Made by a program: the position numbers and the translations under genes. From an uncultured Chloroflexia bacterium (GTDB lineage Bacteria; Chloroflexota; Anaerolineae; B4-G1; SLSP01), in the NCBI GenBank assembly GCA_963751345.1, contig CAVVUS010000012.1, positions 1 through 64,000 of the forward strand: a stretch of 64,000 nucleotides of DNA, written 5' to 3'. Below the pieces are notes generated by a model that was given only the letters and a program-made list of their open reading frames with translations, made no database searches and was not told the origin of the DNA. Positions 51,466 through 55,682 of this stretch are shown piece by piece (the first letter of the stretch is position 1; every line of letters starts with the position of its first letter).

Positions 51466-52332
51466 CTAGCGTCGGCCCAGAATAGCCTGTAGCATACCTT
51501 GCGCAAGCGCTGCCCCCGCGCCTTGGCGTGGGGTCTGTGCCTGCTGGGGTTTCGTGCCCATGATGGTGGCAAGCAGGGCGGCCTGGGCGGCCTGCGACGG
51601 ATCCGCGCCTGCCTGTTTGGCCTGCAGATACGCCAGGCCCGCCGGCAGGAGCTTCCCCAGCACGTCGCCCATGTCCGGCCCGTCCTGTGCCTGCGGAACC
51701 GGCTGCGCCGGGTGGGCCTGAGCTCCCTGGGCGCCCGTCAGGCCGGTGAGTAGGCTGACCAGGTCTCCCATCTGGCCCGGTTGAGGCTGTGCCTGCGGGG
51801 CCGACGGCCCCTGTGCGCCGGCCAAACCGGTGAGCAGATCCAGCAGTCCTCCCATCTGGCCCGGCTGAGCCTGGGGTTGCTGAACCTGTGCGGGTTGGGC
51901 TTGTGCTCCACCTCCCGCCATGCCCGCGAAGAGGTCCAGCACGCTTGGCGTCGACTCCTCGGGCTTGGGGTATCCCTGGGCAGGGAGAGCACCCAGGAGT
52001 GATTGGATCAGTGAGATGCCATCGGACGCCTTGAGGTCGGTCTTGCCCGACAGTTTGTCTGCTGCCTGCAGGAGACCACGGGAGTAGTATTGGCTGGTGC
52101 CGCCGTGTCCGTTCTCGCTCAGCTTCGCGCCGGCAAGACGCAGGGCCTGGTCCGGTGGATCTGCTTGGTGCTCAGTGAGGGTATCCATGACCATTTGCAC
52201 GTTCTGCAGCGTGTTATCGCCATGGTTACCGTTGTAGCCGTCGAGGGCGTTGATGTCTTCCTTATGCTCGGAAATAACCTGCGCGGCTGCCTTGAAAAGG
52301 CTTGCCAAATCAATCGAAGGCGATTCAGTCAT
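51466..52332 (-). CDS. DAK2 (DhaL-like) domain protein with a Q/P/G-rich repeat tail
   Basis: EHKEDINALDGYNGNHGDN..GGTSQYYSRG; repeated QPGQMG(G/D)L..LLTGL.GAQG. Confidence 0.75.
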   Translation of the reverse strand: MTESPSIDLASLFKAAAQVISEHKEDINALDGYNGNHGDNTLQNVQMVMDTLTEHQADPPDQALRLAGAKLSENGHGGTSQYYSRGLLQAADKLSGKTDLKASDGISLIQSLLGALPAQGYPKPEESTPSVLDLFAGMAGGGAQAQPAQVQQPQAQPGQMGGLLDLLTGLAGAQGPSAPQAQPQPGQMGDLVSLLTGLTGAQGAQAHPAQPVPQAQDGPDMGDVLGKLLPAGLAYLQAKQAGADPSQAAQAALLATIMGTKPQQAQTPRQGAGAALAQGMLQAILGRR

Positions 52333-52585
52333 AGACCCTCCTCTAGAGCGTCGCTCGCGACAATACCCGCCTTGCGGCGGTCGCCTACGGTGCAAGGATA
52401 GCCCTGCTTGATGGCAGGCAGTCACGCGTTAGGACGCATCCGCCACCGTAGCAGCCACTGTACCAAATTGTAGGGTGATGCGATACGAAGTCAATGGCGA
52501 CTCCAGGGCGGGTGCGTTTCATCTCGGGGGAATACAGAAGATTGCTGCATCGTCATCCTGAAACGCACCCCCTGAGTCCACATGC

Positions 52586-52613
52586 TTGACATCGACGGCG
52601 AATAAGGTACAAT
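52586..52613 (+). promoter_or_regulatory. Sigma70 promoter upstream of the rnj leader
   Basis: TTGACA-N16-TACAAT. Confidence 0.75.
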
Positions 52614-52626
52614 CCTTGCCGAAAAT

Positions 52627-52862
52627 ACAGGTGGAGTTTCCACAGGCGGCAGTTCCCCTAGCTGGTACCAGTTAGACATCAACTGTGACACGCTTCAGAC
52701 TGGTAGCAGATCGACTTCAGATTCGCAGCAGTCTCCGATGCGGGATCGCGCGCAAGCGCATATTGGCCCGCCCAAGCTTGTTAAGCCTCAAATGAGGTTC
52801 GCCCCTGCCTGATACGCTGTCTGTAAGCGGTAGTTGGGGTAGGCGTGGACACTCGTGCCTGT
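52627..52862 (+). ncRNA. Candidate structured RNA / 5' leader of rnj
   Basis: 5' and 3' ends pair (ACAGGT/GCCTGT, GAGT/ACTC, TCCAC/GTGGA); nested helices and a GCAA tetraloop hairpin; starts just after the promoter. Confidence 0.55.
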
Positions 52863-52895
52863 GCGATTGGTTAGAGTGAGGGTAATTAGGAGTAT

Positions 52896-54521
52896 ATGGC
52901 TAAGAATTTACAAATCACCCCTATCGGCGGCTTAGGGGGCATCGGCAAGAACATGACGGTGTATGAGTATGGCCGCAACGTATTGGTAGTGGATTGTGGT
53001 GTGATGTTTCCGGCGAATGATATGTACGGCATCGACTTGGTGCTGCCGGATTTCGAATATGTGGTTGAGAATCAGGACAAGCTGCGCGGTATCGTGTTGA
53101 CCCATGGTCATATGGACCACATCGGCGCCTTGCCCTATCTGCTTCGTCGCATGAATGCAAATGTGCCCATCTACGGCACACCACTGACATTGGGTCTGGT
53201 CGAACGGCAACTGGCCGAGAAGAACATGCTGGAGAAAGCGGATCTCCACATACTGACCAAGGGAGAGACGGTCCATCTCGGACCTTTTAGGGTGAGCCCG
53301 TTTGCTGTGGCCCACTCCATCCCCGACGCGGTCGGATTCGTCATCGATACGCCTGTCGGCAAGATCGTCCATACAGGCGACTACAAGCTCGACGAGACGC
53401 CCGCCGGCGGACGCACGACGGATCTGCAGGCCCTGCACGAGCTGACGCAGGGAGGCGTGTTGGCGATGCTGGCCGACAGCACGAATGCCGACAAGCCGGG
53501 TCGCACCGAGACCGAGGCAGTCGTTCGCGAGACGCTCGATCGCCTGTTTGACCAGGCGAAGGGGCATCGCATCATCATCGCGACCTTCTCATCGCTGCTG
53601 GCACGCCTGCAGGAGATCATGGACCTCGCCAAGAAGCACGGGCGCAAGGTCGCCATGACCGGGCGCAGCCTGGTTGAGAACGTCGAACTGGCGCGCGACC
53701 TGGGCTATCTGAAGGTTGCCAAGGATCTCATCGTCGACATCGAGGATCGGGTAAAGCCCGGAAACCTCGTCGTCCTATCGACGGGCTCGCAGGGCGAGCC
53801 ACGTTCGGCGCTAAACCGGATGGCCGACGGCAGCCATCGCCAGGTTCACATTCGGTCCGGCGATACCATCATCATCTCCGGCGGTACGATCCCCGGGAAC
53901 GAGGAAGACGTCAGCCGGATGATCAACGGGCTCTTCGAGCGGGGCGCCAACGTGATCTACGGGGCCATGGCAACGGTGCACGTCTCAGGCCACGGAGGCC
54001 AGGGAGATATGCGCGCGATGCTCGAGACAGTACAGCCGCGCTATCTGATCCCGGTCCACGGTGAGCCGCGCCATCTCTACCTGCACCGGCAGTTAGCTCA
54101 GGAGGTCGGCATTCCCACCGACCGGGTCTTCATCCTCAAGGAGGGTATGCCCTGGGTCAGTGATGGGGAGAAGGCCTGGACCGAGAAGGCAATGCCGTTG
54201 GCGGACGTCCTTGTGGATGGGCGCCTGGTCGGCGAGATCGGTGAGATCGTGATGCGAGACCGTCATCGCCTGTCTCAGGATGGTTTTATCGTTGCACTGA
54301 TCCCGATCAACAAGAAACGGCAGTTGGTCGGCGAACCGCAGATCGTAAGCCGCGGCTTCGTCCATCTGGACGCATCCGACGAGCTGATCGACGCCAGCCG
54401 CAAGGAGATCAAGCGTCAGGTAAAGCGTGGTAACCAGGACCTCCGGCGTCCGCTGGAGGAGCTGTTCTACCGTATGACGCAACTGAGGCCGGTCGTCCTG
54501 CCGCAGTTCATCCAGGTGTAA
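52896..54521 (+). CDS. rnj: Ribonuclease J
   Basis: GGLGGIGKNM, THGHMDHIG, AHSIPD, HTGDYK, DSTNA, TGSQGEP, HVSGH, IPVHGE. Confidence 0.96.
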   Translation: MAKNLQITPIGGLGGIGKNMTVYEYGRNVLVVDCGVMFPANDMYGIDLVLPDFEYVVENQDKLRGIVLTHGHMDHIGALPYLLRRMNANVPIYGTPLTLGLVERQLAEKNMLEKADLHILTKGETVHLGPFRVSPFAVAHSIPDAVGFVIDTPVGKIVHTGDYKLDETPAGGRTTDLQALHELTQGGVLAMLADSTNADKPGRTETEAVVRETLDRLFDQAKGHRIIIATFSSLLARLQEIMDLAKKHGRKVAMTGRSLVENVELARDLGYLKVAKDLIVDIEDRVKPGNLVVLSTGSQGEPRSALNRMADGSHRQVHIRSGDTIIISGGTIPGNEEDVSRMINGLFERGANVIYGAMATVHVSGHGGQGDMRAMLETVQPRYLIPVHGEPRHLYLHRQLAQEVGIPTDRVFILKEGMPWVSDGEKAWTEKAMPLADVLVDGRLVGEIGEIVMRDRHRLSQDGFIVALIPINKKRQLVGEPQIVSRGFVHLDASDELIDASRKEIKRQVKRGNQDLRRPLEELFYRMTQLRPVVLPQFIQV

Positions 54522-54527
54522 TCCGCC

Positions 54528-54614
54528 AACCTTGCGAAGGAGCGTTCCGGGAAGCTGCCGGAGCTCCCGGAACGCTAGTTGCCTGCGCTACGGGCTACGT
54601 ATCTTCGCAAGGTT
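54528..54614. repeat. Composite nested palindromic (REP-like) element
   Basis: AACCTTGCGAAG / CTTCGCAAGGTT perfect outer arms; inner AGCGTTCCGGGA / TCCCGGAACGCT. Confidence 0.8.
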
Positions 54615-54653
54615 TAGCACAGGGCCCCCAGGTAACCTGGGGGCCCTGTGCTA
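54615..54653. terminator. 18-bp perfect hairpin downstream of rnj
   Basis: TAGCACAGGGCCCCCAGG-taa-CCTGGGGGCCCTGTGCTA. Confidence 0.7.
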
Positions 54654-54686
54654 TACTGCAGACGTGTGAGAAAGCGAGGTGCGATT

Positions 54687-55682
54687 ATGACCCCCAAAGA
54701 GATTATCCTGGCGAACATCGCCCACGAGGATCCACCGCGCTGCGGCCTGACCTTCACCTGGGGCCGGATCAACGACATGCTCGATGGCGGCGTGGTTCCC
54801 CATGGCTATCGCCAAAAGCGTTGGGTCGAGGGCAAGGTGGAATACTACGACGACGAATGGGGCAACCTCTGGGTACGCATGCGCGAAGGCTCGATCAAAG
54901 GCGAGATCTACAGGCCCGCGATCGAGGACTGGTCCCAGCTCGACGAGCTACAGCCGCCCGACTACACTCACCCCGACTGCGCCGAGCAGATGAACGACCT
55001 CTTCAGCCGGCCCACCGACAAGTTCAAGCTCGCGCATATCGGTGGCTGGATCTTCGACAACGCTCGCTATCTCCGCAAGATGGAGACCTACTTCTGCGAT
55101 ATGGCCCTCTACCCCGAGGAGCTCAATCGCATGCACGGGATCGTGGCCGACGTGTACGAGCAGAAGATCCACCTGGCGGGTAAGGCAGGGGCCGACGGCA
55201 TCATGATCGGCGAGGATATGGGCACGCAGACCGGCCTGCTTTTCAGCCCGAGGATGTTCCGCGAGTACTTCAAGGCGATGTACACCCGGCTGATGTCCAT
55301 CGCGCACGACTACGGCATGAAGGTGCTCATGCACTCCTGTGGTCAGAACTGGTCCATCGTGCCGGACCTACTCGACGCCGGGGTCGATGTCTTCCAGTTC
55401 GACCAGCCTGCGGTCTACGATATGCCCAAGCTCGCCGCACTGCTCAAGGAGCGCAAAGCCGCGCTGTGGAGCCCCGTCGACATCCAGAAGATCCTGCCCA
55501 CCGGCGACCGCGAGCTCATCGAGGCGGGCGCCAGGGAGATGGTCGACATCTTCGAGGGCGGCCTGATCTGCAAGAACTACACGGACCTCGCCGGGATCGG
55601 CGTGAAGGAAGAGTGGGATATGTGGGCCTACGACGCCATCTGCGAACGCGCGGGAGTCCGCGGAACAGTCTCGATGGACTGA
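54687..55682 (+). CDS. Uroporphyrinogen decarboxylase-like (URO-D/MtaA family) protein
   Basis: DEWGNLW, GEDMGTQTGLLFSP..FREYFK..Y, MHSCG, PVDIQKILPTG. Confidence 0.88.
   Translation: MTPKEIILANIAHEDPPRCGLTFTWGRINDMLDGGVVPHGYRQKRWVEGKVEYYDDEWGNLWVRMREGSIKGEIYRPAIEDWSQLDELQPPDYTHPDCAEQMNDLFSRPTDKFKLAHIGGWIFDNARYLRKMETYFCDMALYPEELNRMHGIVADVYEQKIHLAGKAGADGIMIGEDMGTQTGLLFSPRMFREYFKAMYTRLMSIAHDYGMKVLMHSCGQNWSIVPDLLDAGVDVFQFDQPAVYDMPKLAALLKERKAALWSPVDIQKILPTGDRELIEAGAREMVDIFEGGLICKNYTDLAGIGVKEEWDMWAYDAICERAGVRGTVSMD

Follow-up and report, generated by a model that had tools for sequence, protein, structure and literature searches.

RNase J is a central enzyme of RNA decay and RNA maturation in many bacteria. 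How its level is set is little known, and a report of feedback was found only for Helicobacter pylori, where negative feedback has been described for the rnj 5' untranslated region (UTR) in connection with the RNase J/RhpA degradosome (PMC5874925), the accessible part of this source giving no defined RNA structure. As far as the accessible parts of the respective papers go, feedback involving the 5' UTR of Escherichia coli rne is cited in two of them (PMC5874925; PMC7283877) and negative feedback has been reported for Bacillus subtilis rny (PMC10303841).

On comparative sequence evidence, the region described here comprises the promoter of an accessory RNase J gene and its structured 5' leader, which is an undescribed conserved cis-acting RNA; a literature search, subscription papers and supplements aside, found no description of the element. 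The host genome is a MAG of an uncultured member of the Anaerolineae (Chloroflexota), a group of filamentous bacteria, abundant and for the most part uncultured, from sludge, soils and sediments. The window, meaning the whole stretch of 64,000 nucleotides that was analysed, contains the complete leader and gene (Table 1). In the leader, an RNA fold that is defined, conserved and clearly marked by invariant nucleotides goes with a second copy of RNase J in Anaerolineae; it provides a concrete handle on how a bacterium balances two RNase J paralogs, with a reach limited to one bacterial family and about 25 distinct examples.

The accessory RNase J gene and its surroundings

The first-pass annotation had called the gene downstream of the leader RNase J, and this identification holds: the reading frame opens with ATG at 52896 and its product carries the RNase J beta-CASP, RMMBL, metallo-beta-lactamase and RNase J C-terminal domains of Pfam. 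The genome has two RNase J genes. At E<=1e-50, RNase J was detected in 77 of the 81 genomes of the order, as a rule with 43-48% identity to the window protein, and proteins 77-82% identical to it occur in only a few of these 81 genomes. Within the family the close paralog is carried by 21 of the 71 genomes, being spread over 14 of the 21 other genomes of the genus and three further genera, and the window rnj is therefore regarded as an accessory, patchily distributed copy. Its gene neighbours are not conserved beyond the closest relatives. The other RNase J gene of the genome (L090, G000:C49:74722-78099) is a 746-aa ORF with a TTG start that is without the first ~77 residues of the alignment and extends beyond the usual end, a shape that suggests assembly frame errors or a disrupted housekeeping copy.

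Upstream, a divergent gene on the minus strand starts at 52341 and encodes 291 aa of low-complexity, Q/A/P-rich sequence without a Pfam match; it has a promoter-like site of its own (TTGACT-16-TACAAT, 52494-52467, minus strand) and a leader of ~125 nt (52344-52494). Downstream, the gap between rnj and the next gene, which is URO-D-like and has its true ATG at 54688, is highly structured (54522-54687), with a long-range pair at ~54530-54612 around a 12-bp hairpin and a 17-bp GC-rich hairpin (54617-54653) that has no U tail. Neither a terminator nor a promoter was found when this gap was scanned for them.

Promoter and leader

The near-consensus promoter proposed in the first-pass annotation is present (Table 1) and common to the relatives, in which the equivalent site reads TTGAC-N15-18-TAnAAT; the regular expression TTGA..-N15-18-TA...T matches 23 of 23 of them as well as four that were added later. 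The leader had been put at about 275 nt with no plausible ORF. Its length between promoter and rnj ATG is indeed about 275 nt, and the sole ORF of at least 30 aa (52685-52795, 36 aa, GTG start) loses its frame to a gap of 17 nt in the closest relatives of type A, the region being missing from others. The 5' ends and linkers of the leader are AU-rich and single-stranded. A terminator-like site was looked for on the plus strand of the leader and none was found. In the predicted ensembles of 21 leaders the ribosome site is as open as the rest of the leader or more so (mean unpaired 0.49 vs 0.40 overall), and masking of the Shine-Dalgarno (SD) sequence was rejected, the predicted accessibility of these 21 ribosome sites giving no occlusion.

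RNA evidence for the locus consists of a 198-nt contig from an RNA library, at 53116-53313 inside rnj, among 13 sequencing runs that contain the locus, one of them recorded as RNA. No coverage of the leader was seen in that single library, whose contigs cannot reveal where transcripts start or end.

Table 1. Positions of the promoter, leader elements and rnj in the window
Feature	Position	Strand	Remarks
Sigma-70-type promoter TTGACA-16-TACAAT	52586..52613	+	11/12 matches, near-consensus
rnj 5' untranslated leader	52620..52895	+	start ~52620 inferred from the -10 box
P0 5' strand ACAGG, outer helix of type A	52627..52631	+	pairs with 52858-52862
Conserved core matched by model R1	52637..52817	+	56.2 bits, E 8.6e-11; core folding z -2.52
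P1 5' strand CAGGC	52643..52647	+	pairs with 52807-52811 GCCUG; CM alignment
P2 5' strand GCAGUU	52649..52654	+	pairs with 52681-52686 AACUGU
J2/3 unpaired C-run, nearly invariant	52655..52657	+	CCCC together with C52658; invariant or >=90% columns
P3 hairpin CUAGCUG-GUAC-CAGUUAG	52658..52675	+	52658-64 with 52669-75
P4 long irregular hairpin AGACUG...CAGUCU	52697..52734	+	52697-52702 with 52729-34
P4b hairpin GCGGG...CCCGC, inner GCGC-GCAA-GCGC	52740..52771	+	lineage-specific
Hairpin AGCCUCA/UGAGGUU carrying the conserved C-rich box AAGCCUCA	52784..52799	+	MFE fold, type-A comparison
P1 3' strand GCCUG, proximal copy	52807..52811	+	CM alignment
Type-A-specific 3' insert between P1 and P0	52812..52856	+	sequence not conserved between lineages
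Distal GCCUGUG	52857..52863	+	52858-62 = P0 3' strand
Shine-Dalgarno AGGAG (52886-90) and ATG start (52896-98)	52886..52898	+	ribosome site not predicted to be occluded
rnj, accessory RNase J paralog, 541 aa	52896..54521	+	Pfam PF22505, PF17770, PF07521, PF12706

Distribution of the leader

Leaders of the paralog were compared as type A (seven leaders from four lineages, the window's included) and type B. The covariance model R1 (143 positions, 30 pairs) was derived from 10 type-B leaders, the window and its kin being left out, and matched the core of the window's leader (Table 1). When 63 sources were searched with R1, 27 matches at E<=1 were returned; 26 of these are rnj-paralog leaders, which make up all of the significant matches (26/26), and the 27th is weak (54543-54649, minus strand, E 0.11). 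No match was obtained on 25 housekeeping-rnj loci, nor on 12 loci of paralogs that are more distantly related, two of these loci being without upstream DNA. In its own genome the leader alone is significant (E 1.6e-9) and present as a single copy; the second-best match there (C14:4848-4981, 23.2 bits, genome-wide E 0.108) is without P3.

Over the 71 genomes of the family, R1 gave 21 matches in 20 genomes, all of which, by their coordinates, immediately precede the paralog on its 5' side. A match is missing from just two paralog carriers, G012 and G023, in which the contigs stop before the leader, and in G004 the leader is present and the paralog gene is truncated by the end of the contig. R1 had no match in a sample of 150 other genomes from across the class. 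An unbiased motif scan of metagenomes recovered seven stretches. Each of the seven precedes a paralog whose first 150 aa are 75-83% identical, and a motif pattern of that kind occurs once in the window's own genome. With blastn the leader was found in 14 of 41 relatives, all within the genus. A looser pattern run class-wide on 400 other genomes gave 12 matches compared with about 39 for a control read backward, and R1 confirmed none of the 11 loci that were fetched. Across the paralog loci the leaders measure 170-313 nt and have a nearly invariant 5' block. All told, the sample amounts to about 25 distinct sequences, which come from one family and perhaps a dozen lineages within it.

Other copies of the leader, or mimicry of rRNA or of a substrate, were sought by blastn-short of three segments against the whole genome, which returned chance-length matches only. 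The 18 nt at 52825-52842, in the non-conserved 3' insert, are perfectly complementary to the coding strand of a gene at G000:C22:63103-63120 (blastn-short E 0.005); this is probably a chance occurrence, since three query segments were used and the complementarity is confined to the window's clade. A sister genome holds a second leader copy, 99% identical to the window's (L002/L071, G002:C8:1-2596). The rnj that follows it has numerous frameshifts and stops and runs off the contig end at 87% DNA identity, being either a pseudogene or a poorly polished contig end.

A conserved multi-branched fold

The fold is multi-branched, with P1 (general form C-R-CAGGC with GCCUG-Y-G) closing a junction that holds P2/P3, a variable P4 and the P5 region. 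P2 (GCAGUU/AACUGU) encloses an unpaired C-run and the P3 hairpin CUAGCUG-GUAY-CAGUUAG; after an optional P4 of variable length come a conserved ACCAGCG linker, P5 with an apical C-rich box and ~16 nt leading to the 3' strand of P1. RNAalifold applied to type B recovered P1, P2, P3 and P5. In a MAFFT-only alignment of 16 type-B leaders, 88.0% of the cells pair, a share that falls to 26-41% if the 3' partners are shifted by 1-3 columns. Nine pairs in this alignment change on both sides (three each in P1, P4 and P5, those of P4 at its base) vs 5.0 in shuffles, of which 8 in 500 reach 9, the shuffle control keeping the phylogenetic signal and related sequences inflating tests of this kind. In a CM-fitted alignment of 27 rows (25 distinct), which leans towards the model, has one spurious row and places the P1 3' strand wrongly in L005/6, L012, L014 and L020, 89.6% of the cells pair and 12 pairs change on both sides, four of them in P1, vs 3.8 in shuffles (0 of 500).

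P2 and P3 barely covary. P3, which is paired in 92-94%, has a G-U wobble that is conserved, and no other stretch of sequence is as conserved as this hairpin; the variation of both helices, almost all of it in the case of P3, is wobble-compatible (A-U/G-U swaps, U-A to U-G), which argues for RNA over a DNA palindrome and for the plus strand as the RNA. The strand is fixed by the conserved G-U pairs together with the folding of the minus strand of the leader (z +0.47).

Folding energy gave a mixed answer to the comparison with shuffled controls called for in the first-pass annotation. The whole leader (-98.4 kcal/mol) is weak in this respect, with z -1.43 against dinucleotide shuffles and 17 of 200 as good, while the core does better (z -2.52, 1 of 200 shuffles as good). 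The cores of seven relatives gave z of -0.25, -0.87, -0.96, -1.01, -1.96, -2.03 (L077) and -3.59 (L081), so that a z of -2 or lower was reached by three of the eight cores (L077, L081 and the window), a modest margin over shuffles. The leader is judged to be beyond chance because of its conservation and covariation, folding energy alone being insufficient. The conservation and compensatory changes that had been asked of the relatives were found with both the covariance model and the alignments, and by this measure the leader is a real and cleanly delimited conserved structured RNA.

The leader of the window, part by part

The fold of 236 nt that the first-pass annotation had drawn is right as far as the outer helix, P2 and three local hairpins go. 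P1, P3 and P4 are missing from it, and four of its long-range helices are conserved no further than the window's own clade, within which they hold. Its closing helix ACAGGT/GCCTGT (52627-32/52857-62) is in the MFE fold and equals P0, which forms 5/5 pairs in six of the seven type-A leaders and has one A-U to G-C compensation, in L005/L006. By the comparative model, P0 in the window's lineage joins the 5' end to a position that lies ~25 nt upstream of the ribosome-binding site. CAGTT/AACTG, likewise in the MFE fold, is P2 and holds across type A, as does P3. Two further members of the proposed outer stem, GAGT/ACTC and TCCAC/GTGGA, are in the MFE fold but reach 0-3 pairs outside the window's clade, apart from 5/5 for the latter in L079. 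A small GUGGA/UCCAC hairpin near the 5' end forms 5/5 pairs in three of the seven type-A rows.

The composite helix CCCC-AGCTG/TAGTTGGGG is absent from the MFE fold and competes with the conserved P3; its CCCC/GGGG part has 0-3 pairs outside the window's clade, and AGCTG/TAGTT, the part that competes with P3, has 4/5 in three other rows. CGCTT-CAGAC/GTCTG-AAGCG is also absent from the MFE fold and competes with P4; both of its halves (CGCTT/AAGCG and CAGAC/GTCTG) have 0-3 pairs outside the clade. The base of P4 itself forms 5-6 of 6 pairs in all seven type-A leaders, P4 being variable or absent in type B. The proposed GCGGG/CCCGC stem around GCGC-GCAA-GCGC corresponds to P4b and is in the MFE fold; its outer stem is 5/5 in four of the seven type-A leaders, the inner stem is restricted to the window clade and the whole hairpin is absent in L005/L006. 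AGCCTCA/TGAGGTT, present in the MFE fold too, has 7/7 pairs in the window clade, 5/7 in L003/L079 and 1-3/7 in others, and the box that it carries is conserved; this hairpin may be inferred to be the counterpart of the apical GACCCCA box of type-B P5. The helix that had been missed altogether and is best supported is P1.

The MFE fold (-104.4 kcal/mol) holds P0, P2, P3, P4 and the local hairpins. With P1 enforced as a nested helix the energy is -96.6 kcal/mol, at a cost of 7.8. The distal GCCUGUG is also complementary over 7 bp to 52641-47, a possible alternative partner of the P1 5' strand, and the fold constrained to this pairing has -99.1 kcal/mol; comparison of the two constrained folds makes the proximal and distal strands plausible competitors for P1. 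The same 3'-strand duplication is found in L067-type leaders. In addition, a segment in the 5' strand of P4 (anti-P3) is strongly complementary to P3 in all seven type-A rows (z -1.9 to -3.8) and patchy in type B. Neither of these alternative pairings, the distal P1 strand or anti-P3, shows covariation.

Other candidate pairings were discarded. A helix GCUGGUA/UACCAGC, between the P3 5' strand and J4/5, appeared in the MFE folds of L077 and L081 and had no covariation, its duplex energy not exceeding that of shuffles in most type-B leaders. Two pseudoknot pairings, one joining the C-run of J2/3 to the AGG of J5/1 and the other the SD to the C-rich boxes, were inspected by eye and are neither conserved nor compensated.

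With regard to known RNAs, the view that the leader lacks their hallmarks was upheld: Rfam 15 gave no match at gathering score over the whole window and none at E<=10 in 52350-52950, no Rfam match at E<=1 overlapped the leader at eight homologous loci, and ARAGORN predicted no tRNA or tmRNA gene in 52300-53000. Its description as a new structured cis-acting element tied to rnj agrees with the missing Rfam match, the compensatory changes and the exclusive association with the rnj paralog.

How the leader may act on RNase J

The leader most likely controls the amount of accessory RNase J that is made. Given that no terminator was found and the ribosome site is not predicted to be occluded, control would act on mRNA stability or through a bound factor and not by a simple mask over the SD. 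The favoured reading, to which a probability of roughly 0.4 is given, is negative feedback by RNase J activity on the rnj mRNA via the leader, a reading by analogy that is preferred because ribonuclease genes are classically controlled through their leaders. As in the autoregulatory leaders of such genes, a conserved structured RNA lies here between promoter and ribonuclease gene. The leader would set the lifetime of the rnj mRNA, and hence its yield, according to the RNase J activity of the cell, whether this comes from the accessory paralog, the housekeeping enzyme or both. A strong constitutive promoter would provide the transcript, the AU-rich single-stranded ends would let the nuclease in, and the stable core together with the 5'-proximal helices would form a regulated barrier to 5'-to-3' decay. 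RNase J is not known to carry a sequence-specific RNA-binding domain, and the near-invariant sequences of the junction and of P3 look like a specific binding pocket or site, which counts against feedback.

Elsewhere in the class, rnj genes have unrelated leaders. In L025, L027, L029 and L045, which belong to sister families, the housekeeping rnj is preceded by promoter-leader-terminator units, and the many architectures before rnj in the class fit feedback on the gene better than a single metabolite aptamer. The leaders of these four loci have a consensus promoter, ~100-150 nt and, just before rnj, a conserved hairpin resembling an intrinsic terminator (GCACC...GGUGC and a U run); they may be transcription attenuators, and a search of them against Rfam gave no match. 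The paralog loci L061 and L066 are without the motif; what follows their promoter is a short leader that contains an intrinsic terminator and then a U run. L055, L056 and L070, whose paralogs are 64-69% identical, share a different conserved leader of ~230 nt that R1 does not detect, with a box CCAGC...GACCCCCAAAG reminiscent of the J4/5-P5 box of the motif.

A more tentative possibility, and the main rival of feedback, is that the core (52637-52817) serves as aptamer in an orphan riboswitch of a new class that would turn accessory RNase J on or off, and in which the P1-closed junction with its invariant nucleotides would bind a small molecule or ion, ligand binding would alter mRNA stability or translation, and the proximal and distal P1 strands and anti-P3 would be the switching elements; the metal cofactor of the metallo-beta-lactamase-fold nuclease and a nucleotide signal are candidate ligands. 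A conserved fold, covariation and invariant junction nucleotides, as expected of an aptamer, are all found in the core, where the covarying closing helix surrounds the conserved J2/3 C-run, GUUAGA, ACCAGCG and the C-rich P5 box and the peripheral stems are variable or optional, and its place in a 5' UTR behind a constitutive-looking promoter is that of a riboswitch. The element precedes, however, one gene family only, in one bacterial family, so that no gene context hints at a ligand. Replacement of the proximal P1 strand by the distal GCCUGUG (in the window and L067-type leaders) and the anti-P3 segment of all seven type-A rows would provide for switching, but these pairings do not covary and are patchy in type B, no expression platform was recognised, neither a terminator nor predicted SD occlusion being found, and the leaders of other rnj genes of the class are unrelated. 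In favour of this alternative, the invariant junction nucleotides look like a specific pocket. If ligand binding is true, the leader would represent a new riboswitch class with an unusual target, through which a metabolite or metal ion would directly reprogram bulk RNA decay by way of the accessory RNase J.

Slightly less probable than the riboswitch is a platform for another trans-acting factor, such as a protein that binds C-rich loops or a small RNA, or alternatively a constitutive stabiliser without feedback, by which the leader would shield a strongly transcribed mRNA from 5'-end-dependent decay. Conservation lies in the sequence more than in the pairing of P3, J2/3 and the C-rich boxes, as a binding platform would have it, yet no candidate gene is linked to the element, the neighbours being conserved only among the closest relatives; the helices near the 5' end (P0 and GUGGA/UCCAC) and the accessible ribosome site would suit a stabiliser, for which a 5' hairpin would suffice and a conserved junction of 120-180 nt would be superfluous. 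It is very improbable that the element is a discrete noncoding RNA derived from the rnj transcript, by processing or otherwise, for instance the divergent 6S RNA raised in the first-pass annotation. Its size and multi-branched fold would allow such an RNA, but the 6S idea fails because the canonical 6S RNA of the genome lies elsewhere (RF00013, G000:C10:97395-97572, 68.4 bits), 6S RNA being a rod with a central bubble unlike the multi-branched leader; the Rfam and ARAGORN searches were negative, no terminator follows the structure before rnj, and the spacing to the rnj start is constant and the co-occurrence with rnj complete, the element never being found away from it. Least credible of all is a DNA operator, in which the near-palindromic P3, close behind the promoter, would be bound by a repressor and chance would account for the other helices. 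As DNA, P3 is a near-perfect palindrome of 18 bp with almost no two-sided covariation, but its changes keep the RNA pairing through G-U wobbles and break the DNA symmetry, P1, P4 and P5 covary far from the promoter, and pairing drops from 88% to 26-41% when the partners are slid.

Comparison with known systems

Orphan riboswitch candidates are junction-type aptamers closed by a covarying P1. The leader shares with them a closing helix that covaries, junction nucleotides that do not vary, peripheral stems that are optional and a place in a 5' UTR, and differs in offering no evident ligand or recognisable expression platform, in having a single gene family as its target and in being absent from Rfam 15. 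Another comparison is with the E. coli rne leader, whose element is rne5 of Rfam. Both leaders are long, conserved, made of several hairpins and placed before a ribonuclease gene, and that of rne, according to the accessible parts of the sources, mediates autoregulation of mRNA stability; enzyme family and fold are different, with a defined hairpin that binds RNase E in the case of rne and no Rfam match at E<=10 in the case of the window leader.

The rnj 5' UTR of H. pylori, likened here by description, is like the window leader the 5' untranslated region of an RNase J gene with a proposed feedback on expression, whereas that organism has a single rnj and the accessible part of the work defines no conserved RNA fold, the window leader belonging to an accessory paralog. 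In B. subtilis, as described in the accessible part of the source, rny offers the parallel of an RNase that initiates decay and controls the longevity of its own mRNA via cleavages in the 5' part of the transcript; it differs in the enzyme, in cleavage sites that include the start of the coding region and in that no conserved junction structure is reported there (PMC10303841). Although it falls in no catalogued family by sequence or fold, the leader, as judged from its sequence, belongs functionally with the structured leaders of ribonuclease genes.
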